NCBI GenBank assembly: GCA_038141665.1
Contig: JAYQIN010000002.1
Location: 3,604-67,603 of the forward strand
DNA length: 64,000 nt
Source of the DNA: Thiothrix sp.
GTDB taxonomy: Bacteria > Pseudomonadota > Gammaproteobacteria > Poriferisulfidales > GCA-002705445
Direction: 5' to 3'
Below, piece after piece: positions 12,644 through 62,691 of this stretch. Position 1 is the stretch's first letter; each line of letters opens with the position of its first letter. Position numbers and translations under genes: made by a program. The notes beneath the pieces are model-generated. The model was given only the letters and a program-made list of their open reading frames with translations. It did no database searches and had not been told where the DNA came from.

Positions 12644-12719
<76 letters not shown>

Positions 12720-13947: not shown

Positions 13948-13971
13948 TATTTTTGATAATATAATAAAATA

Positions 13972-14000: not shown

Positions 14001-14013
14001 GTTTTTTAAATAT

Positions 14014-14089: not shown

Positions 14090-14099
14090 GAATAGAATT

Positions 14100-14471: not shown

Positions 14472-14488
14472 ATTTGTGCTAACTTACG

Positions 14489-15034: not shown

Positions 15035-15038
15035 AAAA

Positions 15039-15479: not shown

Positions 15480-15497
15480 TATTTGGTATATATTAAA

Positions 15498-16193: not shown

Positions 16194-16308
16194 GCTTTGT
16201 GAAGTTGTTTTAGTTAAACAACTATCAAAGACCGTAGGTGTATGAAGATACTTAATTTCCTACGCAGATAATTATACTGAAAGGTATACACAAGTTTGGA
16301 GTAATAAA
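16194..16308 (+). promoter_or_regulatory. rplJ (L10) leader region with stem-loop (AGTTGTTT...AAACAACT at 16210-16233)
   Basis: 115-nt untranslated region between rplA and rplJ containing a perfect 8-bp hairpin. This is the position of the L10(L12)4 autoregulatory leader in other bacteria. Confidence 0.4.
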
Positions 16309-16837
16309 GTGGCGTTAAATATTGGTGAAAAAAAAGATGTAGTAAAAGAGATTTCTGATATTGCATCGTCTGCTCAGTCTGCAGGTAGCAGCAGAGTACA
16401 GAGGTTTAACTGTTCAAGAGCTTTCTACATTAAGAGATAATGCTAGGAATCTTGGTGTTTATGTTAAAGTTATTAAAAATAGTTTAGCTAAGATTGCTAT
16501 CAAAGATACTAGCTTGGAATGTATGGACTCCTCTTTAAAGGGTCCCTTGATTTTTGCTTTTTCTAAAGAAGATCTTGGATCAGCAGCAAAACTAGTTAAT
16601 GACTTTAAAAAAGAGAATCAGTTATTAAAGCCAGTAGTTGTTGCTGTAAATGGAGAATTAGTAGATGTCGACAAATTAAGTCAGATAGCTGCATTACCAA
16701 ATAAAGATCAGGCAATAAGTATGCTCATGTCTGTTATGAAAGCACCAATAGAAAAACTTACACGAACATTGGCAGCGCCAAATGTAAAATTAGTTCAAAC
16801 ACTTTCAGCATATAAAATAAAACTAGAGCAAAATTAA
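16309..16837 (+). CDS. rplJ: 50S ribosomal protein L10, apparent +1 frameshift (extra G near 16384) in this sequence
   Basis: GTG start with GGAG Shine-Dalgarno gives VALNIGEKKDVVKEISDIASSAQSA in frame 1. It continues as VAAEYRGLTVQELSTLRDNARNLGVYVKVIKNSL in frame 2. Both halves are colinear with E. coli L10. Confidence 0.8.
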
Positions 16838-16872
16838 CAAAATTTATTTAAGTTTATACTTAGGAGAGTAAA

Positions 16873-17256
16873 ATGGCAGTATCAAAAGAAGATATTTTAG
16901 AATCAATTTCTAATATGAGCGTCATGGATGTTGTGGAGCTTGTAGAAGCTATGGAAGAAAAGTTTGGAGTTTCAGCAGCGTCTGTCGCAGCCGCTCCAGC
17001 AGCAGCTCCAGGTGGAGCAGCACCCGCTGAAGCAGCAGAAGAACAATCAGAGTTTACAATTAAAATGAGTAGCTTTGGATCAAATAAAGTTGCAGTAATT
17101 AAAGTTGTAAGAGCCATCACCGGACTTGGTTTGAAAGATGCTAAAGATATGGTTGAGGGAGCACCAGTAACTGTAAAAGAAGGTGTTTCTAAGCAAGAGG
17201 CTGATGAAGCAAAAAAACAATTAGAGGAAGCTGGAGCAACTGTTGAGCTCAGTTAA
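16873..17256 (+). CDS. rplL: 50S ribosomal protein L7/L12
   Basis: 127 aa, Ala/Pro hinge [20 protein letters not shown]-terminal [25 protein letters not shown]. Confidence 0.95.
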
Positions 17257-17287
17257 ATTTTTTTATAAAATTTGTATAGAAGATGCT

Positions 17288-17330
17288 AGTAACTTTTTTG
17301 TTACTGGCATATTTTTGTTTTTTTAATATT
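17288..17330 (+). terminator. rplL-rpoB intergenic attenuator/terminator hairpin
   Basis: AGTAAC-TTTTTT-GTTACT hairpin followed by a T-rich tract. Classic attenuator position. Confidence 0.55.
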
Positions 17331-17347
17331 AATACTTAAGGGTCATT

Positions 17348-20300
17348 ATGGAATATACATATACAGAAAAGAAAAGAATCAGAAAAAATTTTGGTAAAAG
17401 GAAGCAGGTTATCGATATACCTCCTATGCTAGACATACAAACCGATTCTTATTCTGACTTTTTGAGCACAAGTGCAAATATTGAGACAAGATCTATTTCA
17501 GGGCTGCATAAGGCTTTTCATTCTGTTTTTCCAATAATTAGTCATTCAGGCCATGTAAGACTAGAGTATATTGACTACTCTGTTGGTACACCAATATTTA
17601 ATGTCCAAGAATGCCAATTGAGAGGACTTACCTACGCTGCCCCGTTAAAAGTTTTGATGAGACTAGTTATATGCGAAAGAGATAATCCTGAAAAAGTAAA
17701 AGACATTAAAGAACAAGAAGTTTTTATGGGCGATATACCATTAATGACTAATAAAGGTTCGTTTGTTATAAATGGTACTGAAAGGGTTGTTGTTTCTCAA
17801 CTTCATAGATCACCAGGAGTTTTCTTTGATCATGATAAAGGTAAAACTCATTCTTCTGGTAAATTATTATATTCAGCTAGAATAATTCCTTATCGTGGCT
17901 CATGGTTGGACTTTGAGTTTGACCCTAAAGATGCATTATTTGCAAGAATTGATAGGAAAAGAAAATTACCTGCAACTATATTGTTAAGGGCCTTGGGTTA
18001 TGAAACTAATGAAATAATAGACTTATTCTTTGAAAAAGATGAAATAAAAATTGAAAAAGATTTATTCAAACTTAAGTTGATTCCTGAAAGATTGAAAGGA
18101 ACAATTGCCAGCGACGAACTAAAAATTAAAAATAAGGTATTAATTGAAAAAGGAAAAATATTTAATGCAAGACATGTAAAGATGTTGCAAGATGCAAAAA
18201 TCGAGTATCTTCCAATAAGCGAAGAGTATTTATATGGAAAAATTATTGGTCAAGATATTTTAGATGAAGAGACCGGCGAAATAATTGTTTCTCTAAACAC
18301 AACAATAGATCATGAGAATATCGATTTAATAAAAAAATTAAACTTAAATGGCTTTGAAATTTTATTTACAAACGAAATTGATAATGGTCCTTACATATAT
18401 AACACATTATTAATAGATCCATCTACAAATCAATTAGAAGCACAAGTTGAAATATACAAGATGATGAGACCTGGTGAACCTCCAACTAAAGATGCGGCTC
18501 AAAATCTTTTTACAAACCTTTTCTTCGTCGAAGAAAGATATGATCTCTCTGAAGTAGGTAGAATGAAGTTCAATGCTCGCTTAGATAAAAATAATAGTTC
18601 AGAGGGAGTTCTAAATAAAAATGATATTGTTGACGTCATTAAAGAATTGGTAAATATAAGAAATGGCAATGGAACTGTTGATGACATAGATCATCTTGGA
18701 AATAGAAGAGTTCGTTCTGTTGGAGAAATGATTGAAAATGTTTACCGAGTTGGATTAGTTAGAGTTGAAAGAGCAGTTAAGGAAAGATTAACCATCGCAG
18801 AATCCGAAGGTTTAATGCCGCAAGAGTTAATTAATGCAAAACCAGTAATGGCAGCAATTAAAGAATTTTTTGGATCTAGCCAGCTTTCTCAGTTTATGGA
18901 TCAAAATAATCCTTTGTCAGAAATAACACATAAAAGAAGAATATCTGCTTTAGGCCCAGGTGGTTTAACTAGAGAAAGAGCAGGCTTTGAAGTTAGAGAT
19001 GTTCACCCTACACATTATGGAAGAGTTTGTCCGATAGAAACTCCTGAAGGTCCAAACATCGGTTTAATTAACTCATTGGCTGTATTTTCTAGAACTAATA
19101 AGTATGGATTCCTTGAAACACCTTATAGAAAAGTAATTAATTCAAAAGTAACTTCTGAAATAGAATATTTATCTGCTATAGATGAATCAAAATATGTTAT
19201 TGCTCAAGCTAACGCTGAATTAGATAAAAAAGGAAAATTTACTGATGATTTTGTTTCTTGCAGACATTTAAATGAATTTATGATGTCAACTCCAGAAAAG
19301 ATTGATTATATTGATGTTTCTCCAATGCAAATTGTCTCCGTAGCATCATCTGTAATTCCATTTTTAGAGCATGACGATGCCAACAGAGCTCTTATGGGAT
19401 CAAATATGCAAAGACAAGCTGTACCAACATTAATTGCCGAAAAACCGCTAGTTGGAACTGGAATGGAAAGAGCAATCGCAAGGGATTCTCATGCTGCACT
19501 TATAGCTAATAGGGGTGGAAAAGTTGATAGCGTAGATGCAGGCAGAATAGTTGTAAGAGTTAATGATTCAGAAACTACATCTGAAGAAGCTGGTGTAGAT
19601 ATATATAACTTAACTAAATATACAAGATCAAATCAGAATACTTGTATAAATCAAAGACCTCTTGTTAAAGTTGGTGATATTATTGCTAAAAATGATGTTC
19701 TTGCGGACGGACCATCTACTGATCTTGGCGAACTTGCACTTGGCCAAAATATGTTAATAGCTTTTATGCCATGGAATGGATATAACTTTGAAGATTCTAT
19801 TTTAATATCAGATAGAGTTGTAGAGGAAGATAGATTCACAACAATCCATATAGAAGAATTAACATGCATTACTAGAGATACAAAGTTAGGAGCAGAAGAA
19901 ATTACTGCTGATATTCCAAATGTAAGCGAGAGTTTACTGGGTAAGTTAGATGAGTCAGGAATCGTTTACGTCGGAGCTGAAATAAGTCCTAACGATATAT
20001 TGGTTGGAAAAGTAACACCGAAAGGTGAAACGCAACTTTCTCCTGAAGAAAAATTGTTGAGAGCAATATTTGGAGAAAAAGCCTCTGATGTAAAGGACAC
20101 TTCTCTAAGAGTACCTTCGGGAATTGAAGGAACGGTTATAGATGTGAGAGTGTATACTCGCGATGGAATAGATAAAGATGATAGATCTCTTGATATTGAA
20201 AAAGAACAAGTTGAATTAGCTAAAAAAGATATCGCAGATCAATTAAGAATTTATGAAGATGATATTTTATTTAGAGTAAAAAACTTAATTTTAAATAAAG

Positions 20301-21424
20301 TTTCTGAAGGAGGTCCTAATAATCTTAAAAAAGGAGATAAAGTTACGGAAGTTTATTTAGATAATCTTGATAAAACTAATTGGTTAGATATTAGAATAAG
20401 AGATGAGAAAATAAATGTGCAGTTAGAAAAATTGGCAAAACAATTAGCAAAACAAAAAGTTAATTTAAAAGAAACTCTTGAAAGACAAGAAGCAAAAATA
20501 ACTGCAGGCGGCGACCTTTTGCCTGGAGTTTTGAAGATAATCAAAGTTTATTTAGCTGTGAAAAGAAGACTTCAGCCTGGTGACAAAATGGCTGGACGTC
20601 ATGGAAACAAAGGAGTTATTTCTATGATTGTTCCAGTTGAAGATATGCCGCATATGGAGGATGGCACACCTGTAGATGTTGTTTTAAATCCTTTAGGTGT
20701 TCCCTCAAGAATGAATGTTGGTCAGGTTTTAGAAACTCATTTAGGTTGGGCTGCAAAAGGTTTGGGAATAAAAATTGGAAAAATGTTAGACAAAGATACA
20801 CCTATAAAAACTATTAGATCTTTCTTAGAAACTGTATATAGCGTTGGTGCAAATGAAAAAACTAGTCTAAAAGATTTTACAGATGAAGAAATTAAAAGCC
20901 TTGCGAATAATTTAAGAAATGGTGTCCCAATGGCAACCCCTGTTTTTGATGGCGCACATGAAAATGAAATTAAGGAGATGTTAAAATTAGCTGATCTCCC
21001 AGAGTCAGGTCAAGCAAAACTTATTGACGGAAGAACTGGGGAGTATTTTGATCGTGAAACCACAGTTGGATATATGAATGTTCTGAAATTAAATCATTTG
21101 GTTGATGATAAAATGCATGCTAGGTCGACTGGGCCATACAGTCTTGTAACTCAGCAACCTTTGGGCGGTAAAGCTCAATTTGGCGGGCAAAGATTTGGAG
21201 AAATGGAAGTTTGGGCATTAGAAGCATATGGCGCCGGGTATACTCTTCAAGAAATGCTGACAGTCAAGTCTGATGATGTGAGCGGAAGAAATAAAATGTA
21301 TAAAAATATTGTTGATGATTCTCAAAGTATTGATGCTGGAATGCCAGAATCTTTTAATGTATTGATGAAAGAGATTAAATCTTTAGGAATAAATATTGAA
21401 CTTGAAAAGGATGAAAGCAAATGA
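17348..21424 (+). CDS. rpoB: DNA-directed RNA polymerase beta subunit
   Basis: 1358 aa, single intact ORF. Confidence 0.97.
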
Positions 21425-41476: not shown

Positions 41477-41857
41477 GTGAGACACAAGTATTCTGGAAGA
41501 AAATTAAATAGAACATCATCGCACAGGGCTGCAATGTTTAAAAATATGATGGCTTCATTAATTGAACATGAAGAAATTAAAACAACAGTTCCTAAGGCAA
41601 AAGAATTAAGAGGTTTTGTTGAACGTTTAATTACAATTTCTAAAGTTGATACTATTGCAAAAAGAAGAATAGTTTTTTCTCGAATAAGGTCAAAAGAAGC
41701 TGTTGCAAAACTTTTTAATGAACTTGGGCCAAGATTTAAAGAGAGACCTGGAGGCTACACAAGAGTTTTAAAATGTGGTTTTAGAGCAGGCGATAAAGCC
41801 CCTATGGCTATAATTCAATTAGTAGACAAGAAAGAAGAAGCTATAGAAGAATCATAG
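41477..41857 (+). CDS. rplQ: 50S ribosomal protein L17
   Basis: 126 aa. Confidence 0.9.
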
Positions 41858-44661
41858 AATTTTCTTTAAGTACCTGCCTGTAAATGATTTTTTGTTCTTG
41901 GCGACTAATTCAGGCGATCCTTCAGCAATAATATTTCCACCTTTCATGCCTCCTTCTGGACCCATGTCTATAATCCAATCAGCTGTCTTTATAACATCTA
42001 AATTGTGTTCAATTACAATTATTGTGTTTCCTTTATCTCTTAGTTTATAAATAATTTTCAGCAGCTGGTCAACATCATGTATATGAAGACCAGTAGTTGG
42101 CTCATCAAATATATATACAGTTTTTCCAGTATCTTTTTTTGAAAGCTCTTTAGCTAATTTTACTCTTTGTGCTTCACCACCAGAGAGAGTAGTAGCATTT
42201 TGCCCAACCTTAATATATGACAGACCAACATCTACTAGTGTTTTTAATTTTCTCTTGATAGTAGGAACACTATCAAAAAATTGGTACGCATCTTCTACCG
42301 TCATGTCTAGCACCTCTGAAATATTTTTATTTTTATATAAAATTTCTAAAGTGGAATTATTATACCTTTTACCTTTGCAAATATCACATTGTACATATAT
42401 ATCTGGTAAAAAATGCATTTCAACTTTTATGACTCCATCCCCATGACAAGATTCGCATCTTCCTCCTTTAACATTAAAACTAAATCTCCCAGGATTGTAA
42501 CCTCTTGATCTAGATTCTTGTGTTGCTGCGAATAAATCTCTTATTAAGGTGAAAAGGCCTGTATATGTTGCAGGGTTAGACCTGGGCGTTCTTCCTATTG
42601 GGCTTTGATTTATTTCTATTATTTTATCAAAGTTCTCCCAGCCCTCTATATTTTTTACATCACCATGATTGTTACTATTTTTATTAATTTTATTACTTAG
42701 ATATTTAAAAAGTGTTTCATTTATTAGAGTTGATTTACCTGAGCCTGATACACCTGTTATACAGGTTAATAATCCAATTGGTATTTTAACATCTAAATTT
42801 TTTAAATTATTCGAAGATGCATTTAAAATTTTTAAATTTCTTGAGTTTGGCTTTAGTCTTTCAGTCGGAATTGATATATTTTTTTACCTGACAAATATAA
42901 TCCAGTAATGGAATTACTATTTTTTTCTACTTCTTTAGGAGAACCTTCCGCTACTACTTCTCCGCCATAGGCGCCAGCTCGTGGACCTATATCTATTACA
43001 TAATCAGCAGCTCTAATAGTACACTCATCATGCTCAACAACAATCACAGTGTTACCTAAATCTCTTAATTTATATAAGGTTTCAATTAATTTATCGTTAT
43101 CCCGTTGATGAAGCCCTATAGAAGGCTCATCTAATATATAAGTTACGCCAACTAGACCTGCTCCAATTTGACTAGCAAGCCTAATTCTCTGATTTTCACC
43201 TCCTGATAAAGTCTCAGCACTTCTTTCAAGACTTAAATAATTTAGCCCCACGTTATTTAAAAAGCTTAATCTTGAGAATATTTCTGTAATTAGTTTGTCA
43301 GCAATTTTTTTTCTTTTGCCGGACAAAGAGATATTTTTAAAAAAAAGCAAACATTCATCGATGGGCATTGAGGAAATATCAGTAATATTTTTATCGTTTA
43401 TAAAAACATTTCTAGCATCTTCACTCAATCTAGTACCGTTGCATTCCCCACAAATTTGTTTAGAAAGATATTTATTTAATTCTTCTCTTACGAAATTTGA
43501 CTCTGTGTTATTATATCTTCTTTCAAAATTACTTATTACGCCTTCAAAGCTTTGCATTTTAGTAACTTTTTTTCCGTTATTATTGTAATAAATAAATTTT
43601 ATTTCCTCATTTCCTGTGCCGTATAAAATAGTTTTTTGTACTTTTTTACTTAAAGAGCAAAATGGAACTTCTATATTAAATTTAAAATGTTCTGAAAGCG
43701 ATTTGATAATTTGAAAATAAAATTCGTTCCTTTTATCCCAGCCTTTTATAGATCCAGAGGCCAAACTAAGATCTTCGTTTACAATTTTTTTTTCATCAAA
43801 AAACTGATTTACACCAAGTCCATCGCATGCTTTACATGCTCCCACTGGACTATTAAATGAAAAAAGTCTTGGCTCTAATTCTTGTATACTATAACCGCAT
43901 TTTGGACATGCAAATTTCGATGAATAGCTTTCATCTTTTTTTTTGTCATGCGAGTGAATAATAACTGTATCGTTTTTAAAATTTAACGCTGTCTCTATTG
44001 ATTCTGTAAGTCTTATTTTTGAATTTTTGTTAATTTTTAATCGATCTAACACAAGCTCTATCGTGTTATTTTTTTTTGGATCTATTTTTGGAAGTTCTGA
44101 AATATTATATATTGTTTTATTTATTCTAAGCCTTACGTAACCTCTTATTTTAATATCTTCTATAATATTTTTATGCTCACCTTTTCTGTTATTAATTAAG
44201 GGTGTAAGTATTATTAATGACTCATTTTCTTCATATTTTTCATATAGGTCTTCAACAATTTCTGAGGCAGATTTTCCTTCTAAACTATTTCCATGAGTTG
44301 GACACTTTGGCGCTCCTGCCCTTGCAAAAAGTAATCTTAAATAATCGTGAATTTCTGTAATTGTCCCAACAGTTGATCTAGGATTATGCGAAGTTGTTTT
44401 TTGCTCAATTGATATAGCTGGAGACAGACCTTCTATGTGATCTACTTCTGGTCTTTCCATTCTTGTTAGAAATTGTCGTGCATATGCAGACAAGGATTCA
44501 ACATATCTTCTTTGACCCTCCGCGAAAATAGTATCAAAAGCTAGTGAGGACTTACCGGATCCTGATAGGCCAGTAATAACGATTAACTTATCTCTTGGAA
44601 TAGTTACATCTATATTCTTTAAATTATGGCTTCGTGCGCCCTTAATTACTATATTATGCAT
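41852..44661 (-). CDS. uvrA: excinuclease ABC subunit UvrA, apparent 1-bp deletion in the T7/A7 homopolymer at 42879-42885
   Basis: The 602-aa N-terminal ORF ends ...[16 protein letters not shown]. The next frame continues ...[51 protein letters not shown]...[25 protein letters not shown] into the 188-aa C-terminal ORF. An 8-A run would restore [15 protein letters not shown], colinear with E. coli UvrA. Confidence 0.85.
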
Positions 44662-49808: not shown

Positions 49809-51290
49809 ATGAATTATTTATTGTGTTTTATTTTTGGTGGGTTATATACTTTATCATTTTCACCTTACAGTATTAGTATATTTTCAATATTCAGTATTCT
49901 GTTTTTTCTATTACTTATAGATTTTGATGATTTTAAACATTCAGTATTAAAATCATTGTTCTTTTCTCTGGGATATTTTTTAATTGGGACGTATTGGCTT
50001 GATAATGTAATAAGAAATTTTTCAGAAATAAATTTTACTTTATCAATTTTTTTAGTTTTATTATTTACACTTTACTTGTCATTATTTTTTATTTTTCCTT
50101 TTATAATAACTTATATAATAAATAAGAATTTAAATATAAGAAAAAACTTTTTATTTATAATTTTAGCTATTTTAATAACATTATTTGAGGTCATAAGGTC
50201 AAATATTTTTACAGGATATTCTTGGTTTAATTTTGGTCAAGCTGCCATCAACACACCACTAGATAATTTTTTTCCATGTTTTGGTGTTCACGGACTAACA
50301 TTTATAATTTTCTTAATAGCAATAGTTTTTTTAAATATTCTCAAAAATAAAGACTTGTTTTTTTTTTCAATATTAGGTATTTGTATAATTTCAACAAACT
50401 TATTGGTTTATAATAAAAATTGGACTTATAAGATTGGTAAAGATATTAAAATATCTGTTATACAACCAAATATACAAAATAAAACTAGTTATAGTGATGA
50501 TGATGTTATTATTAGAATGAAAATTCTTAAAAAACTAACTATTGCTTCTGTAAAATACTCGCCTGATATTATTCTTTGGCCTGAATCTCCTTTACCAATT
50601 GTGTATAATGATTTGAAGAATAATTTTTATAAAAATATTCTTTTAGAATTACCTAGCTCAACTTCTTTAATTTCTGGTTCTTTTTTTAATAATGATAAGT
50701 CAATATATAATTCAATTATTAATATTACAGATCCATCTAATAATATCTATAATAAAAAACACTTAGTTCCTTTTGGAGAGTTTTTGCCTTTAAGGAAATT
50801 ATTCAGTAATTTTTATAATTATTTTAATTTAAATGTTTATGATATTGAAAGAGGTAATAAATCCAACTCCTTATCAATTAATAACTTAGTAGCTCATTCA
50901 CTAATTTGCTATGAAAGTATATTTTCTTTTGAATCATTAGTTAGAGATAAAAATGCTGATTTTATTATAAATGTTTCAAATGATGGTTGGTTTGGTGATT
51001 CATTAGCACCATATCAGCATTTAGATGCATTAATTATGAGATCTTTAGAAAATCAAAGATACTCTATAAGGTCAACTAATACAGGAATTTCTGCAGTTAT
51101 TAAACCTGATGGAACATTAGTCGAATATATTAATTTAAATAACAGGGGAATAATAAATACAAAAATTCATTCTATGAACGGTCAAACTCCATTATCAATT
51201 TATGGGCATGACATTTTATATTATTTACTTTTTATAGTATTTTTGTATAGCAGCGTATATTTTAATTTTAAGTTATTCAGGCGCTCATAG
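49809..51290 (+). CDS. lnt: apolipoprotein N-acyltransferase
   Basis: N-terminal TM bundle plus C-N hydrolase domain (CYESIF...NDGWFG). Confidence 0.8.
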   Translation: MNYLLCFIFGGLYTLSFSPYSISIFSIFSILFFLLLIDFDDFKHSVLKSLFFSLGYFLIGTYWLDNVIRNFSEINFTLSIFLVLLFTLYLSLFFIFPFIITYIINKNLNIRKNFLFIILAILITLFEVIRSNIFTGYSWFNFGQAAINTPLDNFFPCFGVHGLTFIIFLIAIVFLNILKNKDLFFFSILGICIISTNLLVYNKNWTYKIGKDIKISVIQPNIQNKTSYSDDDVIIRMKILKKLTIASVKYSPDIILWPESPLPIVYNDLKNNFYKNILLELPSSTSLISGSFFNNDKSIYNSIINITDPSNNIYNKKHLVPFGEFLPLRKLFSNFYNYFNLNVYDIERGNKSNSLSINNLVAHSLICYESIFSFESLVRDKNADFIINVSNDGWFGDSLAPYQHLDALIMRSLENQRYSIRSTNTGISAVIKPDGTLVEYINLNNRGIINTKIHSMNGQTPLSIYGHDILYYLLFIVFLYSSVYFNFKLFRRS

Positions 51291-51299
51291 AAATTTTTT

Positions 51300-51968
51300 T
51301 CAATGCTTTAAACTCTTGCACAATATTTTCAACATTATTTGCTGATATTTTCGAGCTTCTTGATAATTTATTTTCGCAAAGAGCACCTCTGAAACCCATA
51401 TAGTTTGGATAAGTTTTAGAATTTGATCTATATGTGATTTATTAATTGATCCAGCAACACCAGTTAAAAGATTGAGTTTTTTTGAATTTAAAATAAAATT
51501 ATTTAAATCAGAATAAGTTAAATGATTAAAGAGATTCCCAGATTTTTTATTAGATGTATCTAACATTACTCCACTATAGCCAGATTTTTTTAGTACCAAC
51601 AAATCGTTAGTGTTGGGTAAAAATAAATCAGCAAAGAAAACAGCAATTAATTTTTTAATAGATTTTATTTCAGACAATGTATTAATATAATCATTCTCGT
51701 ATACGCCTATTTTAATAAAATCGATGTTTGTTTTGCTTAGCTCGTCGACAATTTTTTCTATCAAAACTTTATTATTAGGCAGATCCCCAACTGTAGAGCT
51801 TGTGAGCTTTTTTTTATTAATAAAATTTATGATATTTTTTATGTCACTAGTTTTAAGTTTTCCTAGCGCTCCTTTTTCTGGATCCTTGAGATCAATAATA
51901 TCAATTTCTGAATTAATTATTATCTTTGCTTCCGACATATTTTGTATGCTAGCTAGTATTTTTGACAT
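51300..51968 (-). CDS. mfnB: (5-formylfuran-3-yl)methyl phosphate synthase-like (MfnB/DUF556), methanofuran biosynthesis
   Basis: IDIIDLKDPEKGALGKL, FIKIGVY, SGVMLDTSNKKSGNLF parallel the MfnB IDVKNP..GSLGA / KVGLY / AMLDTA..G..LF pattern. Confidence 0.55.
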   Translation of the reverse strand: MSKILASIQNMSEAKIIINSEIDIIDLKDPEKGALGKLKTSDIKNIINFINKKKLTSSTVGDLPNNKVLIEKIVDELSKTNIDFIKIGVYENDYINTLSEIKSIKKLIAVFFADLFLPNTNDLLVLKKSGYSGVMLDTSNKKSGNLFNHLTYSDLNNFILNSKKLNLLTGVAGSINKSHIDQILKLIQTIWVSEVLFAKINYQEARKYQQIMLKILCKSLKH

Positions 51969-52536
51969 TTTTTATATTTTCCCTATATTTATTTATATAA
52001 TCTATTAACCAAATCCATGCTTCTAATTCATTATCTCCAGCAGTTTTATTTATTGCAATTTGCAAGTATTTAATTTCATTCTGAATTTTCTTATCTTCAA
52101 TTATTCCTAATCTTGAGGCTAGTATGCAAAGTTCTAAAACTGCAGATTTTGCTCTATTCATTCCATAATACATTTTATGAGTTTCTTCATTTACAGGCTT
52201 GCATATAATAGTTGGTCTTAAATTATCATCTTCAATATGTTCTACAGTAAATTCTGTATGAGAAATTGCTTCCTTAATACTAGAACAATCAATATGCTTA
52301 GTTTTTAAGAAGTTAATTTTAATATTTTTTTTTACTATGCATGAAGCAAATATTCTTACATCATCTATATAGTTTATCACACCAGATCCATTTCTTAATA
52401 TATTTTCTAATGAAATTGATGGTTTAAAAGGTCTTATTTTCAGTATGTTATTTTCTATATATATGCCTAATGGAGATACTTTTATTGTATCATCAATATT
52501 TTTTGTAGTAACAATAGTTTCTCTAACATAGGTCAT
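51949..52536 (-). CDS. conserved hypothetical protein, probably associated with the H4MPT/methanofuran cofactor cluster (DUF447-like?)
   Basis: 195 aa, operonic (20-nt overlap) with the mfnB-like and DHPS-like genes. Family assignment is from memory only. Confidence 0.3.
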   Translation of the reverse strand: MTYVRETIVTTKNIDDTIKVSPLGIYIENNILKIRPFKPSISLENILRNGSGVINYIDDVRIFASCIVKKNIKINFLKTKHIDCSSIKEAISHTEFTVEHIEDDNLRPTIICKPVNEETHKMYYGMNRAKSAVLELCILASRLGIIEDKKIQNEIKYLQIAINKTAGDNELEAWIWLIDYINKYRENIKNVKNTS

Positions 52537-52542
52537 ATTTTT

Positions 52543-53956
52543 TTAATCCACATTTTTATTTTTAATTTTTCTCATAGTATGACCAGCAGTCTTAAATTTC
52601 ATTATATCATCTTCTGATATTTTAACCGAGCAACCCCACTTTAATATTTCATCCTGATCATACCTTTTGCCTAATTGAAAAGCTATTTCAGCTCTTGCCA
52701 ATTCCATACCAATGTAATATGCATGTCCATCATCATTTTTAATATCGAGATATTGATAAAACTCAGCCGCATCATTTTCAGTATAGAAATCTTTATTATT
52801 AAAAACATGGATACCATCATGATTAACATAAATTCTATAGTTTTTGTCTTTAACATTACTCCACATTTCCTTTAGTTCTTCTGTCGAATAAGGAAAAGGT
52901 TTTCTTTCATGAAGATTAAGTAATTTATTAGAAATATCCTTAGGAGGCATGCTATATGCCTTTGTTGTATGCATTATCCTTCTAGCAAAATTACCTTCTA
53001 TAATTGCCTTATTACAGTGCTCACTTACTTGTGTACATAAAGCATAATTTATCTCTAGTTCTGATGCTATTCCGAAAAGCAAAGCATTCATACCAGCTGT
53101 GTCAGCATGCGTAAGTTCTGTTAAGTTTCCAATTCCCATCATTATTTCAACATCAGAAAACTCCTTTCTGAAATTATGATATCTAACTATTGAATCTGGT
53201 AAAACCAAAATTAATTGGTTCTAGAATTGAATCAGCTATAAAGTTTTTTTTATTTTTTAATAGTTTTTCGATAAGTTTATAAAATTTTCTCTCTTCATTA
53301 GGAAAATTTGGAATAATAACTGGAATTGCTTCAACTTCATCCATTATCCAAATTGAATTTCTCTGAAGACTTAATAAAAAATCAGCGCCAGCTTTTGCCC
53401 CAGTAAGTAAATTTTTTTCGTCAAGTGAATCTATGCTTACCATGAAACCTTTTCTTTTTAGCTCCTGAATTGTTTCAACCAAGTGCGGAAATTTTGTACT
53501 TGGTAAGCATCCAATATCAATAACATCTGCACCGTCATCTTTATACATATTTGCTTGTGTAATAATTTGATCTATTGACATATTTGGAGCTTCTGTAATT
53601 TCTCCAATAATTTTTGTATCATATTTGCTTAGATCTAAATCTTTTCCTTGTAAACCTAAAAATCTTGGTATATCTTTTAATTCTTCGGGTCCTCGAATAC
53701 ATTTTTTCTTAAAATGTTGTTCTAAGTCTTTTATCTCTCCTCTGCACCTACCAGGAATAATGATTTTTGTAGCCTTTGAAATGTGTTCTATTTTGATTTT
53801 TTTTATAATAATATTAACTGTTGCCAATGCAGCTACGTTAACGCCTATATCTATGATCTCATAGGTGAATTGATTTTTAGAGCTAACATCAGACAGAACC
53901 TTTTCTAATGAAATTTTTGCTAATTTGCCAGTTAAAAATACTAAATGTTCTTTCAT
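52543..53956 (-). CDS. dihydropteroate synthase-like pterin-binding protein (probable H4MPT biosynthesis), read as two overlapping ORFs (53183-53956 and 52543-53208) in different frames
   Basis: The N-terminal ORF has a DHPS-like segment ...DVIDIGCLPS.... The combined length (~470 aa) fits the MJ0107/MptH-like family. A 26-nt out-of-frame overlap suggests a frameshift or genuine overlapping genes. Confidence 0.4.
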
Positions 53957-54040
53957 AATTTCCTACTGTTTTGAATTGTATATTTTATTTTGTTTTAGCA
54001 TAATGTACACTAATAAAAATAATTTTTTAAATTAGTCTAT

Positions 54041-54681
54041 ATGATAGGAGTTCTAGGTGGTAGTTTTGATCCAATACATTTTGGACACATTAACCCTCTA
54101 ATTGAGGTTGCAAAGCAATTCAATTTCTCTGAAATTAAGCTTATTCCAACATATTGTTCACCAGCAGGCAAAAAATTTCATGCCAATTTTGAGCATAGAA
54201 TGAATATGGCATCAATAATATGCTCTTCATCTACAAATAATTTTTCAGCAGATGATATTGAGATTAAAAGAAAAGGAATATCTTACACATATGATACAAT
54301 AAGAATTCTTAAGGATCAAAATAGTAAAGATGATTTTTGTCTTATAATGGGTTTAGATGTATTTCTTAAAATTGAAACTTGGTTTAAGTATGAAAATATT
54401 CTAAATGAAGTAAATATTTTAGTTATAAATAGACCTGGACGCAATATAGACGAGATCAAAAATATGGGTAGCTTTGTAAATCAAAAGATTTCGAAAAACA
54501 AAAAAGATTTTTTAGACAATAAAAATTGTATGATTTATTTTTATGATATTTTGCCCATTGATATATCATCAAGTGATATAAGAAATATAATTAAAAAGGC
54601 AATAATCCAACCAAGAAAATTCCAGGTTCAATTATGTCATATATTGAAAGAAATAAACTTTACAGAAAAGAATATGAGTAA
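54041..54681 (+). CDS. nadD: nicotinate-nucleotide adenylyltransferase, apparent 1-bp deletion in the GG run at 54598-54599 causes read-through fusion with rsfS in the ORF track
   Basis: GGSFDPIHFGHINP (T/HxGH). The shifted frame restores ...NNPTKKIPGSIMSYIERNKLYRKEYE*, matching the E. coli NadD C-terminus LPPAVLAYIQQHHLYR. Confidence 0.75.
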
Positions 54682-55036
54682 AACCGAACATAAAAAAATT
54701 AATAGTATCGTTATGGAATCATTAAAAAGTTTAAAAACTTTAGATATAATTTCAATTGACATGAAAAAAAAATCCAGTTTTACAGACAAATTATTAATAG
54801 GAACTGGAACATCTTCAACTCATATTAAAGCTATATCTAATGAAATTATTGAAAATGTAAAAAAAAATGGTTTTGGTGAAAATATCAGAGGAGTTGAGAT
54901 TGATAATGAATGGGTTCTTATAGATTTATATGATATCGTAATAAATATTATGCTGCATGAAACAAGAGAATTTTATAGCTTAGAAAAACTTTGGTCTGAT
55001 GATACAAATTTGAAATCCGAAATAACTTCAATTTAA
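54674..55036 (+). CDS. rsfS: ribosomal silencing factor RsfS (Iojap)
   Basis: MSKTEHKKINSIVMESLKSLKTLDIISIDMKKKSSFTDKLLIGTGTSSTHIKAISNEIIE...REFYSLEKLW. ATG overlaps the nadD stop. Confidence 0.75.
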   Translation: MSKTEHKKINSIVMESLKSLKTLDIISIDMKKKSSFTDKLLIGTGTSSTHIKAISNEIIENVKKNGFGENIRGVEIDNEWVLIDLYDIVINIMLHETREFYSLEKLWSDDTNLKSEITSI

Positions 55037-55040
55037 TTAA

Positions 55041-55503
55041 ATGAAAATTTTTATTATTACAATAAGTAATAAAAATGAAAATTATGAAAAAATTATTGTT
55101 GAAAAATTTGAAAAATTAATTGGTATTTTCTATGAAATTGAACTTATTAATATAAATTTTAAAACTGAAAAAAGTAAAAAAAAATACTTATAAAAAAGAA
55201 TATAAAAAAGCTATTTCATTAATAAAACCAAATTCAACGATAGTTGCTTTAGATGCAGCAGGAAAATCTTATAGCTCTCTTGAGTTTTCAAGAAAAATGA
55301 TACTATGGGAAGAAAGTTGTATGAATTTGTATTTCTTTATTGGAGGGCCAGATGGTCTTTCAAAAGAGATTATTGAAATGTCAGATCATATATTATCGAT
55401 GTCAAATTTTACATTCCCACATATCCTAGCAAAGGTTATACTTATGGAGCAAATATATAGATCAAAATGCATTATGAATAATCATCCATATCATAGGTCG
55501 TAA
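55041..55503 (+). CDS. rlmH: 23S rRNA (pseudouridine1915-N3)-methyltransferase RlmH, apparent frameshift in the A9 homopolymer at 55176-55184
   Basis: MKIFIITISNKNENYEKIIVEKFEKLIGIFYEIELINI...KSKKK then, in the next frame, NTYKKEYKKAISLIKPNSTIVALDAAGKSYSSLEFSRKMILWEESCMNLYFFIGGPDGLS...NNHPYHRS. Confidence 0.8.
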
Positions 55504-55504
55504 T

Positions 55505-58500
55505 ATGAGAGTTTTAAAGTATTTAATAATAACTTTAATGGCTTATTTGTTAATAAGCTTAAGTATAGCTAGATTTGTTGTATTCTATATTGATAAAATA
55601 ATTAGTATTTTACAAAACCTAATAGATAAAGCAAATTTAAATAGTGTAAAAGTTACAAATGTTGATACTAATTGGAAAGGAATATATCCATCTTTAAAAT
55701 AAATATTACTAAAAATAACGAAAATCAAAATATAAAATACCCAACAAATTTGGAATTACATCTAAATATATATAAAACAATAGTATATTTTAAACCAGTA
55801 ATAAAATCATTATATATTGAAAATGTTAGCTATGAAGGAAACTTAGCTGATTTAGAAAACATAATGAACAAAAATAAAAATTCAAAAAAAATCTTGATAG
55901 AAAATATATTAATAGGTGAATCAAATTTTAATTTTAAACATAATGATAAAATATATAAATTTAGTAAAGCAAATATTTTAATTAGAAAAAACAGTATAAA
56001 TTTATCATCTAATATAGATAAAGATAAAAAACTTAATTTAAAATAAGTAACATATTAACAGATGGCAATAATAATTTAGAAAAAATAGATTATAAAATAG
56101 ATATTTTAGGAAAACTTAATTATAAATTTAATAAAATTTTAAAAATAAAAAACCTTGAGATAAATAATTCTGAATTATCAGTAAAACTTCATGGAAAATA
56201 CAAAGAGGTTATTTTAAAATAATTTTTTATCTATAAAAACATTAAAAAATTCAAATTTTCAGATACATGAAAGCACAATAAAAAAATTAATTTCAAAGTA
56301 TTATTATCTGGTGATATTAAAAATATAATAAATTTTGAAATTATTAATTATTCATCAGAATCAAAGAATAATTATCTTTATGAATTCAAAAATATATCAG
56401 GATCATATAATTATAAAAATGAAACTTTTCATTATATGCTAATAATATTAATGTTAATACTGAAGAATTGTTTGAAGATTATGATTTTATGAAAATAAAT
56501 GATTTCAAATTTATAGGTAGTGCAGAAAAACTCAAGATTAAATTCTCAAGAAAAAAAAATTTAAATAATTTTTTTTTAGAAGGAAATTTTAATAATTCTT
56601 CTATCCAGTATAAAAAAAATTATATAAATAATTTTACAGGTTTTATAAATTTTAAAGATAATACAGCTAATGTTTATTTAAATTCTAAAAATATAGAAAT
56701 ATATAATAATTCTATATTGAATAAAAAAATAAAATTTAATTTTATACGTGGAAAATTATCTGTTATAAATTTTAATAATTTAAACATCTCTTTTGATGAA
56801 GTTCAATTGTCAAACAATGATATTGATTTCACTGTTTCTGGAAATATAAATAAAGCTCTTGATACTGTAAATATTTTTACACACCTGAAATATATTGATA
56901 TGAGGCATATAACGAATTATTTGCCAAAAGAATTCATGAGTAAAAAAACCTCTAGTTATTTTAGTAAGCCTTTGTAGAAGGTGAAACAAAAAATGGTTAT
57001 ATATCTATAAATGGGAGTCTGTCTGGTTATCCATTTTATGATGATTTTTCAGGCATTTCATATGCTATTTTTCCTATAAATAACTTGTTTGTAGACTATA
57101 AAAAAATTGGATTCCTTTTGAAAATATTAAATGGTATTGCTTATTTTAAAAACAGAAAAGCATATTTTGATATCTGATGATTTTGAAGTTTTGAATACAA
57201 AAGTTGAAAACTCAAATTTATATATTAATGATGTTAAAAACACTGTACTTGAAATTTCTGGAGATTTAAATGGTCCATTAAATGATTTAATAATTTACTC
57301 AAATAAAGCAAAATTATCTGATATAAAAAAAAATAATATAGATAAATTATCAGGAAGCGCAAATACAAGTTTTAATATGAGTCTCGCTTTTAATGGAAAC
57401 AAAAATTCTTACAAAAGTGCTATAGACTTAAATAATGTAAATTACAAATATAATAACAATAATAAATTTAAGAATATAAATGGGATTATAAAATTCGAGA
57501 ATAATAAATTTTTTACAGATAGAAATAATTATTTAGAAGGTTTTTACAATGATTCTAAAATTAAATTTGAATTAAAGACAAATAGCGATAGAAATTTCAT
57601 TGTCTCTGGAACACAGGAAGTTCAACCTAAAAAATATATAAAAATTGATAGTATAAATAATATTATTTCGGGAAGCTCAAAATGGAATTATCAAATATAC
57701 TTTCCTGGATTTAACAGCAAAAAAAATAACATTGAGATTTTTGCAGAATTCTAATTTATACGGTACATTAGTATATCTTCCTCATCCTCTAGAAAAATTA
57801 AGTGATTCAAAAGTAAAAACAAAAATATCTTTATCATTTAGCCAAGACAATTTTAGCAATATATCGATATCATATAATAATATTTATTCCGAAATAAAAA
57901 ATTTTAATTCTTTAAATGGTTATGTAGACTTTTCTGGAAAAAAACATAATATACCAAACGAAAAATTGGACTTGTACGGAACAATTAGTTTTCTTGATTT
58001 AGATATGTGGAAAAATTTTAGTAATAAGAAAAATGATGTAAATTATATCTCTTATTTAAATAAGATTAATATTAAAATTAATAAACTTTCAAAAGATAAA
58101 ATTATATTAAACAATTTTACTATAATTGGATCTTCTTCAAATAATGGTTTTAATTTTGATGAAATAACTTCTTTTTCGGATATAGCAGACGTTACAGCAA
58201 ACGGTTTTATTGAGAAAAATAACATTAGCACCTTTAGAATAAATTTAAAGAGTAAAAATTTGCAAAATCTTCTGGATTATTGGGATTTTGATCATAGTCT
58301 GAGAAATTCAACAATTGATAGTAATTTTGATATTTCATGGAAAGGTAGTTTGTTTGATTTCAATTTAAAAAATGTTTATGGTGAATTTTCTACAAGTATG
58401 AATGACGGAAGAATTAAAAAAGTAGGTAATAGGGTAACAAGAATATTCGGATTATTTAATATTGATCTTTTAGCAAAAAGACTGTCATTAGATTTTGACG

Positions 58501-58892
58501 ATGTGACTAAAAATGGATTTTATTTTAGTTCGTTAAATGGTGACTTTAGAATTGATAATGGTAATATTTTCACTACAAATTTATTTATAAAAGGGCCGTC
58601 TGCTGAAATGCTTGCAGTAGGAACTACTGATATTATTAACGAAACATATGATATGCATGTAGTTGCCAGCCCAGAATTTGGAGAGACGCTTCCGGCAATT
58701 GCGCTAATAGGTGGTCCAATAACCGCTGCTGCCACATTTGCAGCTGAAAAATTAGCAAAAGCTTTTGGAAAAGATATTAATGATCTTATTAAAATAAAAT
58801 ATAAAGTCTCTGGGTCATGGGATAATCCTGAGATTAAAATTATGAGTAAAAAAGCCAATGCTTTAGATAATGTAGAGGAATTATTTGAATGA
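55505..58892 (+). CDS. yhdP: YhdP/AsmA-family large envelope protein, fragmented into at least 5 ORF pieces by multiple frameshifts
   Basis: N-terminus MRVLKYLIITLMAYLLISLSIARF (signal anchor). C-terminal block NGFYFSSLNGDFRIDNGNIFTTNLFIKGPSAEMLAVGTT...GETLPAIALIGGPITAAATFAAEKLAKAFGKDINDLIKIKYKVSGSWDNPEI matches the conserved YhdP C-terminus. The pieces are at 55505-55702, 55672-56046, 56468-56977, 57131-57754 and 57732-58892. Confidence 0.65.
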
Positions 58893-60338: not shown

Positions 60339-61394
60339 TTAAATATTTAAATAAGAAACTTTTGGATTACCTTTTTTAGAAATTATGTTTCCTATTACTT
60401 TAGAATTAATTTTTAGATTTTTTAGTTCATTAATAATTAACTTAGCATCATTTTTGTTGCTTACTAATGTCATTCCTATACCACAATTAAAGACTCTCAA
60501 CATTTCTTTTGTGTCAATATTTCCTTTTTTTTGTATATAGGAAAAAATTTTATTTAATTTAATTTTTTTATAATCAAGTTGCGCAGATTTATTTTTAGGA
60601 AGGACCCTTGGTATATTTTCTGTGAGCCCGCCTCCTGTAATATTTGCTATAGCTTTAATCTTATAAAATGATTTAATCCTTAGAATATCTGTATATATTT
60701 TTGTTGGCTTAATTAATTGCTCACCAAGTTTTACTTTTCCAATCATATCATTTAGTTTTATTTTATTTTTATCTAGCATATTATTTATTAAAGAATATCC
60801 ATTAGAGTGAAATCCACTTGATTTAATACCAATAATAACATCGTCTTCTGTGATATTTATTTTAGGCAGCAAATCTTCTTTTTCTATTATACCTACGCAG
60901 AATCCTGCAATATCAAAATCATCTTTTTGATAAACCTTAGGCATCTCAGCTGTCTCACCCCCAATTAGTGATGTGTTACTTATTTCACAACCTTTTGCTA
61001 TTCCTTTAATAACTTCGAAACTTTTATCTTTATTTAAATTACTTGTAGAATAATAATCTAGAAAAAATAAAGGCTTAGCTCCTTGAGAAATAATATCATT
61101 TACGCACATCGCTACTAAGTCAATTCCTATCCAATTAAGTTTCTTTAGTCTTAAGGCAATTTTCAATTTGGTGCCAACGCCATCTGTTCCTGAAACTAAA
61201 ACTGGTTTTTTATAATTTAACCGAGATATATCATATAAGGCTCCAAATCCACCAATACTGCCAATAACGTTTTTATCACATGTTTTCTTGGCCAAAGGTT
61301 TTATCTTGCTGATTAATTTATCGGCATTCTCAATAGAAACTCCTGAGTTTTTATAAGTAACTTTTTGATTCTTTTGGTTATTTTTTTTTGGCAT
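60339..61394 (-). CDS. purM: phosphoribosylformylglycinamidine cyclo-ligase (AIR synthetase)
   Basis: 351 aa PurM fold. purM-purN operon order. Confidence 0.85.
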   Translation of the reverse strand: MPKKNNQKNQKVTYKNSGVSIENADKLISKIKPLAKKTCDKNVIGSIGGFGALYDISRLNYKKPVLVSGTDGVGTKLKIALRLKKLNWIGIDLVAMCVNDIISQGAKPLFFLDYYSTSNLNKDKSFEVIKGIAKGCEISNTSLIGGETAEMPKVYQKDDFDIAGFCVGIIEKEDLLPKINITEDDVIIGIKSSGFHSNGYSLINNMLDKNKIKLNDMIGKVKLGEQLIKPTKIYTDILRIKSFYKIKAIANITGGGLTENIPRVLPKNKSAQLDYKKIKLNKIFSYIQKKGNIDTKEMLRVFNCGIGMTLVSNKNDAKLIINELKNLKINSKVIGNIISKKGNPKVSYLNI

Positions 61395-61445
61395 TATATT
61401 CTCAATATCAGTTAATTTATTTTATTTTTATGTCAAAATATATAG

Positions 61446-62003
61446 ATGAATTATATACCAAATATTATAAGTGGATTAAGAATTTTATTAATACCATTTT
61501 TTGCCTTATACGTGACTTAACGAAGATTAAGACCTCGCTTTATATTTGTTTATATTTATGGGTGTATCTGATTGCATAGATGGTATATTAGCAAGATATC
61601 TAAATTGTGTGTCATTATTTGGAGCATATTTAGATGCAATTGCAGATAAAATCATGATAAATACTGCTTTTTATATTTTATGTATTACATATATACTGCC
61701 ATATTATCTTTTTGTATTAGTTATTTGTAGAGATTTAATAATTTTTGCAGGTATTATAGTAAATAATAGATTAACAAGAGTAAAGAAATGTCCCCAATAT
61801 TTTTAAGCAAGATGAATACTTTCTTTCAAATTATATTAGTGATTCATTGTATGTTATTTTTAAATAATATTTTAAGTATAGAATATATTCAGGATATTAT
61901 TAATGTGGTAATACTTACTACAATTGCAAGCACTCTTGAATATATTTTCAACTATAAGAGAAATATCATAATTAAAAATATTAAATTAACATCTGATTTA
62001 TGA
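61446..62003 (+). CDS. pgsA: CDP-alcohol phosphatidyltransferase (PgsA-like), fragmented by at least 3 frameshifts
   Basis: MNYIPNIISGLRILLIPFFALYVT, then ...TKIKTSLYICLYLWV..., then SDCIDGILARYLNCVSLFGAYLDAIADK (D-G-x2-A-R...G-x3-D-x3-D motif) lie in different frames. Confidence 0.55.
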
Positions 62004-62691
62004 ATCAATTAATACTAAAGTACCAAAAGAATGTTAAGCAAACATTTAATAATTATTATTCAGAAAACCCTGAGAATGAATTAATTTAGATAGTGTTAAA
62101 AAAATATTTAAAAATCAAAACAATCAGATTTTTATATGGGGTAATGAGTGTTCCGGAAAATCGCATATTTTATATTCAGCATGTAATTATTTTGATGAGG
62201 TTAAAATAAGATGTGTTTACTTGCCTATGAAAAATTTTATTAAATTTAATAAAGATGTTTTAGTAGGTGTAGACGAATATGATTTAGTTTGTATAGATGA
62301 TATTGATTTGATATTTGGAATCGAGGAATGGGAAAAAAGCTTTTTCTTTTTAATTAATAAAATTATTGATAATTCAAAAAAAATTATATATACATCATCG
62401 ATGAATAATACTTCAAAAAATATTAAGCTTAAAGATTTGCAGTCCAGATTAAAATGGGGATTAAATTTAAAAATTAACAATGAAAACGATCTTATTAAAG
62501 AAAAAATTTTAAAAAAAATTATTCATGAGGAGGAATACAATATTTCACCAAATGTAAGTAGCTTTCTTTTAAATAGGAAAGATAGAGATCTTTGCTCTCT
62601 AATTAAAAAAATTCATAAGTTAGGTCATCACTCGTTTTCTACTAACAAAAAAGTCAGCCTAAAAGATGTTAATAATATATTAGGTTTGTAA
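62000..62691 (+). CDS. hda: DnaA regulatory inactivator Hda, apparent frameshift around 62060-62085
   Basis: MNQLILKYQKNVKQTFNNYYSENPENELI* then, in the next frame, LDSVKKIFKNQNNQIFIWGNECSGKSHILYSACNYF...DLVCIDDIDLIFGIEEWEKSFF...RLKWGLNLKI. Colinear with E. coli Hda, which also neighbours purMN. Confidence 0.7.

Follow-up and report, generated by a model that had tools for sequence, protein, structure and literature searches.

A dihydropteroate synthase-like, DUF447 and MfnB-type gene trio predicted to serve tetrahydromethanopterin and methanofuran synthesis in a very small marine gammaproteobacterial genome

The C1 gene islands of the methylotrophs Methylorubrum extorquens and Methylosinus trichosporium OB3b contain the series orf19-orf20-(afpA-orf21)-orf22, and the island of M. 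trichosporium has been listed as orf19-orf20-afpA-orf21-orf22 (PMC3615186). The DNA analyzed here is a stretch of 64,000 nucleotides from an assembly filed as Thiothrix sp. (GCA_038141665.1, contig JAYQIN010000002.1, positions 3,604 to 67,603, forward strand; called the window below), in which three families of this series occur in the same order and orientation: a dihydropteroate synthase (DHPS)-like gene, a DUF447 gene and a gene of the MfnB type. We take orf19 to be the DHPS-like gene and orf20 to be the DUF447 gene, which is consistent with the gene order seen here. The trio differs from the methylotroph island in having no afpA or orf21 (mfnE) between its genes, in standing alone between nadD and lnt in a very AT-rich genome of ~1.1 Mb, and in having a partner complex of the Fwd type, not the Fhc type. 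The gene trio as such is known; the marine lineage with a very small genome in which it occurs here is new. With good confidence we read it as a three-gene operon, intact in the organism, whose products would make parts of two "archaeal" C1 carriers, tetrahydromethanopterin (H4MPT) and methanofuran, used by the Ftr and Fwd enzymes encoded 45 kb upstream.

All loci examined have, without exception, the three genes in the order DHPS-like, DUF447, MfnB. Within the lineage of the window (L001-L007 and L011; 77-94% identity) the trio is invariably flanked by nadD-rsfS-rlmH-yhdP on one side and lnt-corC-ybeY-phoH on the other, and a sister clade (L081 and L082; 58% identity) has it in the same nadD context. 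On gammaproteobacterial contigs of 2.4-2.65 Mb (L008-L010; 53% identity) it stands beside recJ, with an AA_kinase gene (orf21/mfnE-like) and pabB 8-9 kb off. In four further lineages, with GC contents of ~25%, 28-29%, 34% and 58%, the trio directly adjoins one end of a complete H4MPT/methanofuran island with the order hydantoinase_A, ATP-grasp (orfY-like), orf17, fae, orf7 (CitG-like), orf5 (RimK-like), mch, (ATP-grasp), mtdB, mptG, fhcB-A-D-C. The original prediction postulated a functional tie between the trio and a fwd cluster ~45 kb away. This tie is supported. In at least four other lineages the trio adjoins such islands, and the window has an intact gene for Ftr, an enzyme which needs both cofactors. 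The shared order and the linkage to islands thus make a role of the trio in H4MPT and methanofuran synthesis rather probable. At least three of these lineages are marine and very AT-rich, and have an all-in-one island which includes the trio and an Fhc-type fhcBADC set; their GC contents are ~25% (L026, L052, L053, L055, L060, L067), ~28-29% (L020, L038, L044, L061, L076) and ~34% (L040, L074, L079).

Orf22 of methylotrophic Proteobacteria is an MfnB homologue and has been presumed to make the furan ring in the synthesis of methylofuran (PMC8141765). In the window the deposited MfnB-like open reading frame (ORF) matches the Pfam family 4HFCP_synth (PF04476) with an E-value of 4e-43, over profile positions 1-198 only; after restoration of one missing base, discussed below, the 230-aa protein scores 182.5 bits (cut-off 22.4) and covers positions 1-227 of 228. 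The furan-phosphate synthase motif quoted in the original prediction is present: IDIIDLKDPEKGALG. A known protein to compare with is MfnB (MJ1099) of Methanocaldococcus jannaschii (PDB 4rc1, 4u9p), and the likeness extends over the full length of PF04476. The Asp-x-Lys Schiff-base motif, a second Lys, the Asp of an MLD motif and the GxRGAxC C-terminus can all be aligned, and residues D26, K28, K86 and D137 of the window protein fall on D25, K27, K85 and D151 of MJ1099 (PDB 4rc1). We take these four, Asp25, Lys27 (which would form the Schiff base), Lys85 and Asp151, to be the catalytic residues. The enzyme would condense two molecules of glyceraldehyde-3-phosphate to 4-(hydroxymethyl)-2-furancarboxaldehyde phosphate (4-HFC-P), the furan ring of methanofuran or methylofuran. 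It should be noted that the window protein is a distant relative of MJ1099 (E 1.7e-17), and that this activity is predicted from sequence.

The region of the DHPS-like gene matches DUF6513, weakly Pterin_bind, PterinBD-DUF4346 and the NCBIfam family TIGR00284, "dihydropteroate synthase-like protein" (unrelated to TIGR00144). In the deposited sequence these matches are divided between two ORFs: one of 257 aa with DUF6513, a sub-threshold Pterin_bind match and TIGR00284 positions 153-296, and one of 221 aa with TIGR00284 positions 298-495 and PterinBD-DUF4346. The two ORFs divide the profile exactly at positions 296/298, and because their matches are complementary we regard them as a single gene which has been cut once. 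The restored 470-aa protein has DUF6513 at residues 3-91, a DHPS-type TIM barrel at about 115-330 and PterinBD-DUF4346 at about 369-435. The C-terminal domain (PF14251) is close to its cut-off of 29.6 bits: the C-terminal ORF scores 31.1 and the restored protein 29.2. Pterin_bind (PF00809) stays below its cut-off of 25.5 bits in the N-terminal ORF, with 20.3, and is not matched by the restored protein. A search of PDB sequences gave no significant match for the DHPS-like protein, the best having E 0.52. Its fold was approached through a structure model of P0001, a 94%-identical protein and not the window protein itself, with a mean predicted local distance difference test (pLDDT) score of 70 and 85-97 in the barrel. 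The top 39 Foldseek matches of this model are all dihydropteroate synthases, with 12-17% identity and TM-scores, normalised to the target, of 0.6-0.69. A weak profile alignment to E. coli FolP (hhalign probability 18%) places GADVIDIG, VSIDS and EPINFGF opposite GATIIDVGG, ISVDT and DPGFGF.

These results bear on the possibility that the trio consists of housekeeping paralogues which have no role with C1 carriers, the DHPS-like gene being folP and "MfnB" a generic class I aldolase. The central domain does have the DHPS fold, three short DHPS motifs do align, and MfnB is an aldolase-type TIM barrel. However, the identity to solved DHPS proteins is only 12-17%, the protein has DUF6513 and DUF4346 in addition, it has no significant DHPS match in the PDB and a low hhalign probability against FolP, and among the curated families TIGR00284, and not FolP, fits it best. 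The MfnB-like protein has a full-length match to PF04476 and keeps all four catalytic residues, and the trio adjoins islands with fae, mch, mtdB and mptG in the four other lineages. We therefore consider this explanation highly improbable. All three family assignments of the original prediction (MfnB-like, a DUF447 protein as known from H4MPT clusters, DHPS-like but not folP) were borne out by the Pfam and NCBIfam profile searches. The outcome it had allowed for, that profiles would place the genes with unrelated aldolase or DHPS paralogues, e.g. folP, did not occur; the best curated family was TIGR00284. As the identity of the DHPS-like gene, folP was rejected on the TIGR00284 match, the absent PDB sequence match and the low hhalign probability.

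The DHPS-like protein is, then, a dihydropteroate synthase paralogue with extra N- and C-terminal domains. It shares with the TIGR00284 (MJ0301-type) family the DHPS-type barrel and the C-terminal PterinBD-DUF4346 domain, and differs in its N-terminus, which is a DUF6513 domain and leaves the first ~150 profile positions unmatched; the family is without a solved structure. An MJ0301-type enzyme was reportedly linked to methanopterin synthesis by Xu, Aurora, Rose and White in 1999. With FolP it shares the TIM-barrel fold and the three aligned motifs; it differs in the two extra domains, in having H4MPT and methanofuran genes and not folate genes as neighbours, and in its predicted arylamine substrate, which would be beta-ribofuranosylaminobenzene 5'-phosphate (RFAP) and not para-aminobenzoate. 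The enzyme may join 6-hydroxymethyl-7,8-dihydropterin diphosphate and RFAP to the pterin-arylamine core of (dephospho)tetrahydromethanopterin. RFAP is proposed as substrate from the gene neighbourhood and from the name and homology of the MJ0301/TIGR00284 family.

The middle gene is intact and matches both DUF447_N (PF04289; E 1.8e-21, 76.7 bits, cut-off 24) and DUF447_C (PF20766; E 5.5e-14, 52.4 bits, cut-off 24.8). Four DUF447 proteins with the same Pfam pair and the same split-barrel fold have been solved: 2nr4 (M. mazei MM1853), 2iml (A. fulgidus), 2ptf (MTH_863) and 3b5m (Rhodopirellula baltica). Three of the four (MM1853, the A. fulgidus protein and MTH_863) were crystallised with flavin mononucleotide (FMN). 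All four source organisms presumably use H4MPT. The window protein has a sequence match to 3b5m (E 1.5e-13), and its predicted model (pLDDT 94.6) superposes on all four structures, with TM-scores of 0.85 (3b5m), 0.78 (2nr4, FMN-bound) and 0.73 (2iml, FMN-bound); remoter matches are split-barrel flavin reductases. From this model the window protein is predicted to be an FMN-binding split-barrel flavoprotein. The identity to the solved proteins is 18-24%, none of them carries an assigned reaction, and a literature search on DUF447 found no paper assigning a function to the family.

A hint of the function may be found in gene fusions. A profile search of 1.84 billion representative proteins gave 1672 DUF447 matches, and fusions were read from the best 150 of these. 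At least 12 proteins of 499-549 aa among them have DUF447 at the N-terminus, and the six long proteins that were examined (P0412, P0405, P0473, P0453, P0423 and P0489) all carry a C-terminal beta-RFAP synthase (MptG) domain; at least one such fusion is annotated as Planctomycetota. By the reasoning applied to Rosetta-stone proteins, the fusions are a sequence link between DUF447 and the RFAP stage. Together with the Fwd-type partner cluster described below, this link to RFAP synthase is the more unusual item of the locus. We hypothesize that the DUF447 flavoprotein acts in the H4MPT pathway, where as a working guess it would reduce the ring-opened N-aryl-ribosylamine to the ribityl form; alternatively it might catalyze another redox step at the RFAP stage. 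Only tentatively, and with more doubt than confidence, do we go on to propose that DUF447 fills a gap in the arylamine (RFAP) branch of tetrahydromethanopterin biosynthesis, as the flavin-dependent enzyme which is missing there. The argument for this is that DUF447 always directly follows the DHPS-like gene, is fused to beta-RFAP synthase in many Planctomycetota-type proteins, is predicted to bind FMN and is kept in a genome of 1.1 Mb. Its likeliest task would be to reduce the ribofuranosylamine which MptG and the DHPS-like enzyme make or use, in a 1.1-Mb genome where it would feed an archaeal-type, CO2-releasing formylmethanofuran dehydrogenase wired to NADP+ via ferredoxin and FprA.

The partner cluster, at 2490-7687 (2490-9472 with the two genes which follow it), was called "fwd/fhc" in the original prediction, and it is here that the earlier description has to be corrected. 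The A, C and Ftr subunits match both systems that can be compared, Fhc of M. extorquens and Fwd of Methanothermobacter wolfeii. Over its whole length the B subunit (456 aa) can be aligned with FwdB of M. wolfeii, with a score of 377 bits as against only 45 bits with FhcB, and it keeps the N-terminal CxxCxxxC motif, SVCHGPS (Cys118-His119) and RGH; a 130-aa FwdD homologue precedes fwdB. The Fe-S domain, the catalytic Cys-His and FwdD are the features which were lost when Fwd became Fhc (PMC6926001). As all of them are present, the partner complex is, judged by its subunits, an archaeal Fwd-type dehydrogenase and not an Fhc hydrolase. It should be noted that fwdD has been stated not to be found in Proteobacteria (PMC5020050). 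The cofactor users are intact and above their cut-offs: Ftr (TIGR03119, 415 bits), FwdA (TIGR03121, 685), FwdB (TIGR03129, 492) and FwdC (TIGR03122, 244). The two genes which follow encode an Azotobacter-type 7Fe ferredoxin (E 5e-29) and an NADPH:ferredoxin reductase of the FprA/adrenodoxin-reductase type (E 2e-102). From this gene content we suppose that formyl-methanofuran would be oxidised to CO2 and that the electrons would pass via ferredoxin to NADP+.

The order fwdD-B-A-ftr-fwdC-fdx-fprA recurs in L012, L013, L014 and L073, and gammaproteobacterial metagenome-assembled genomes commonly contain FwdB homologues with 70-74% identity. On L012, a gammaproteobacterial contig of 2.41 Mb, two formyl-methanofuran enzyme sets stand side by side at 9615-21350, next to a full H4MPT island; one is the Fwd-type set (fwdD-B-A-ftr-C-fdx-fprA), the other a B-A-D-C set whose B subunit is without the Cys-His motif. 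Directly after fprA the window has an insertion of ~2.85 kb relative to L013 (9473-12323, before tRNA-Tyr). This strain-specific cargo contains a 156-aa ORF without Pfam match, an inverse-autotransporter beta-domain protein (10126-11016), a probable secreted protein of 237 aa and a minus-strand membrane ORF of 125 aa.

Between lnt (49809-51290, plus strand) and nadD (from 54041, plus strand) the co-oriented minus-strand coding sequence of the trio occupies 51300-53956. Here the original prediction saw three co-oriented, overlapping genes. Orientation, position and the overlap of DUF447 with mfnB stand; the gene count does not, as the deposited sequence contains four ORFs: 53183-53956 (257 aa), 52543-53208 (221 aa, TTG start), 51949-52536 (195 aa) and 51300-51968 (222 aa). 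The trio itself was correctly seen, but it was missed that two of the three genes are interrupted by frameshifts. The coordinate 51300 is the stop of the frameshifted mfnB ORF and not the true stop: in the deposited ORF of 222 residues the match to the 4HFCP_synth profile breaks off at residue 186 and leaves the last 36 uncovered, and the canonical MfnB C-terminus PNYMGFRGALCENKL... (PNYMGFRGALC...) sits in another frame, ending at a TGA at 51277. The frame-corrected DHPS-like and MfnB-like proteins are equal in length to their close homologues, and the restored frames are without in-frame stops.

With two of three genes interrupted, the locus might be thought to be decaying: the frameshifts would be real, the DHPS-like and MfnB-like genes would be pseudogenes, and the H4MPT/methanofuran pathway would be on its way out with genome reduction as in planktonic Methylophilaceae. 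The OM43-type methylotrophs did lose this pathway in genome streamlining (PMC5020050). The interruptions are, however, not confined to the trio. Compared with L007, an 88%-identical short-read metagenome contig, the window has 18 indels in 9.4 kb, 15 of which are single bases inside coding sequence. Apart from one each in the DHPS-like gene and mfnB, these fall in nadD/rsfS (2), rlmH (1) and a 1129-aa yhdP-like gene (10), and uvrA is split as well; the two indels in nadD/rsfS, of which nadD is an essential gene, account for a fused 331-aa NadD-RsfS ORF in the window. Short-read contigs carry intact 470-aa and 230-aa orthologues at 93-95% identity (P0140 is an intact 230-aa MfnB), and marine metagenomes are rich in intact 470-aa DHPS-like homologues (94% and ~88% identity). 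In two more long contigs, of ~1.1 Mb and from near-identical strains, the same genes are broken elsewhere; these contigs give fragments of 244 aa (P0122, which ends after KKN) and 90 aa (P0123) and an MfnB fragment of 64 aa (P0141), and encode an intact 213-aa NadD. In L011, a pilon-polished contig of 1,106,562 bp from the same lineage, the DHPS-like gene is intact and purM, yhdP, lnt, corC, phoH, miaB, ssb and uvrA are split.

The substitution pattern leads to the same conclusion. All three genes are under purifying selection in their restored frames, with ratios of nonsynonymous to synonymous substitutions (dN/dS) of 0.04-0.18 against four relatives. Downstream of the shifts the ratio is 0.039 in the DHPS-like gene and 0.020 in mfnB, and values as low as these would not be expected after a real, old frameshift. 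The cofactor-requiring Ftr and Fwd genes are also intact. Decay of the locus is thus very unlikely. A programmed +1/-1 ribosomal frameshift which regulates the production of full-length enzyme has next to no probability. Both shifts are indeed single-nucleotide and lie in an A/T-rich context, but the sites are conserved in no relative: every short-read orthologue is in frame, and no relative with the same shift at the same codon was found among the orthologues compared. In the other assemblies the frame is lost elsewhere, the sites have neither a slippery heptamer nor a motif in common, and indels of this kind are spread over the neighbouring genes. From these comparisons the two frameshifts are almost certainly errors of long-read assembly, and the organism most likely carries intact genes.

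Genes of the window outside the trio are broken by single-base indels in 41852-44661, 54041-58892 and 61388-62691: uvrA (602 + 188 aa), rlmH (cut to 68 aa) and yhdP (in at least five ORFs); a CDP-alcohol phosphatidyltransferase gene and hda are probably broken as well. The genes of rpoB, rpoC, fusA, tuf and the ribosomal proteins upstream are intact. The indel pattern across the window is consistent with long-read assembly error. In the sister clade a short-read Tara contig (L082, 162-1139) has a single 325-aa gene call with both NadD and RsfS domains, so that some members may have a true fusion of nadD and rsfS, in contrast to the window, where the fusion was made by errors.

With its frames restored the operon runs on the minus strand from 53956 to 51277 (Table 1). 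The spacer between the DHPS-like stop and the DUF447 start is 6 nt, DUF447 and mfnB overlap by 20 nt, and the restored mfnB stop overlaps the 3' end of lnt by 14 nt. On the basis of the 6-nt spacer and the 20-nt overlap the three genes are probably co-transcribed, starting from the 84-bp region shared with nadD. A scan for promoters and terminators gave nothing above chance; the sole sigma-70-like match (54009-53982) is weak, with 9 of 12 positions, and is equalled in shuffled sequence. No rRNA gene was found within the window.

Table 1. Features of the trio, its frameshifts and the partner cluster (window coordinates).
Feature	Coordinates	Strand	Remarks
DHPS-like pterin-binding enzyme gene (orf19 / MJ0301-type)	52543..53956	-	470 aa after removing one extra C at 53197/53198
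DUF447 gene (orf20-type)	51949..52536	-	intact, 195 aa; predicted FMN-binding split-barrel flavoprotein
MfnB-type 4-HFC-P synthase gene (orf22-type)	51277..51968	-	230 aa after one base restored past 51409; deposited ORF 51300-51968
Divergent intergenic region, operon start/nadD	53957..54040	.	84 bp; presumed promoter region
Frameshift in DHPS-like gene	53197..53198	-	one extra C relative to close relatives; inside conserved EPINFGF(T) motif, aligned with DPGFGF of FolP
Frameshift in mfnB-like gene	51409..51410	-	one base missing relative to close relatives (cttaGtcc or cttaGAtcc there)
fwdD	2490-2882	+	~45 kb from trio
fwdB	2910-4280	+	~45 kb from trio
fwdA	4327-5994	+	~45 kb from trio
ftr	5984-6871	+	~45 kb from trio
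fwdC	6881-7687	+	~45 kb from trio
7Fe ferredoxin gene	7724-8029	+	directly after fwdC
FprA-type NADPH:ferredoxin reductase gene	8042-9472	+	directly after fwdC and the ferredoxin gene

Several observations weigh against the proposal that the trio serves the synthesis of both carriers. The MfnB-like protein is far under the cut-offs of the NCBIfam archaeal MfnB equivalogs (95.6 against 304 for NF002575 and 93.9 against 341 for NF002573), and the best MfnB-family model, NF002576 ("hypothetical protein"), gives 204.7 against a cut-off of 297; by these scores the protein is a member of a bacterial branch and not an archaeal equivalog. The restored DHPS-like protein matches TIGR00284 with E 3e-55 and 187.7 bits, under the cut-off of 256.65, and covers positions 153-495 only. 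The accessible literature contains no biochemical data for any bacterial DHPS-like or DUF447 member. A separate marine cluster of 39 members (P0366) has DUF447 fused to MfnB (423 aa), which leaves ambiguous which cofactor DUF447 serves. Finally, the trio covers one methanofuran step and one or two H4MPT steps, which is less than the complete archaeal-type C1 carrier system of the original prediction, and none of mptG, mch, mtdB, fae, mfnC-F and the ATP-grasp genes was found within the 64 kb of the window or the further ~20 kb of flanking sequence seen in relatives.

This last result might mean that the trio is functional in a truncated system, in which the cofactors are made or part-salvaged for the Ftr/Fwd step only, or in which a variant pterin or furan cofactor is used, and not in a full formaldehyde-to-CO2 H4MPT route. 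The absence of fae, mch, mtd and mptG from the window and the flanks of the lineage and the small size of the genome, only ~1.1 Mb, would fit such a system. So would a scan of metagenome contigs for an AT-biased Fae motif (VGDGNEVAHID; the Fae sequence was confirmed against 1y5y), as none of the 66 loci found came from the source lineage; this is a weak negative, since the scan passes only about half of the AT-rich variants and misses motif variants. The loci of the scan had at most 68% nucleotide identity and a trio identity of 29-49%, with the trio adjacent to the island. On the other hand, Ftr is useless without formyl-H4MPT, the supply of which depends on Mch and Mtd, or on some equivalent, at an earlier stage. 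In the nearest relatives that have larger genomes and share the Fwd-Fdx-FprA module, the full island is found at another place on the chromosome: L010 and L012 are two contigs of ~2.41 Mb, probably of the same species, with the trio distal in L010 and the full island in L012. A truncated system thus seems unlikely to us, and by analogy with these relatives it is plausible that the source genome has the same layout, with the trio distal and an island elsewhere.

Six independent contigs of the lineage have lengths of 1,105,664, 1,106,562, 1,100,129, 1,097,920, 1,109,269 and 1,064,527 bp, the first being that of the source contig. These lengths point to a complete genome of ~1.1 Mb, which would be among the smallest for free-living marine Gammaproteobacteria; the GC content of the flanking regions is only 25-28%. 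The apparent pseudogenes here, two of the trio and many neighbours, are in our reading indel artefacts, and "gene decay" inferred from this assembly would mislead. The constant pairing of the DHPS-like gene with DUF447 and the fusions of DUF447 to RFAP synthase offer a concrete candidate for a step of methanopterin synthesis to which no enzyme has been assigned. Some of the smallest free-living marine gammaproteobacterial genomes, of ~1.1 Mb, keep H4MPT/methanofuran genes, whereas the streamlined planktonic methylotrophs of the OM43 type discarded them, and this bears on which organisms oxidise formaldehyde and other C1 units in the ocean.

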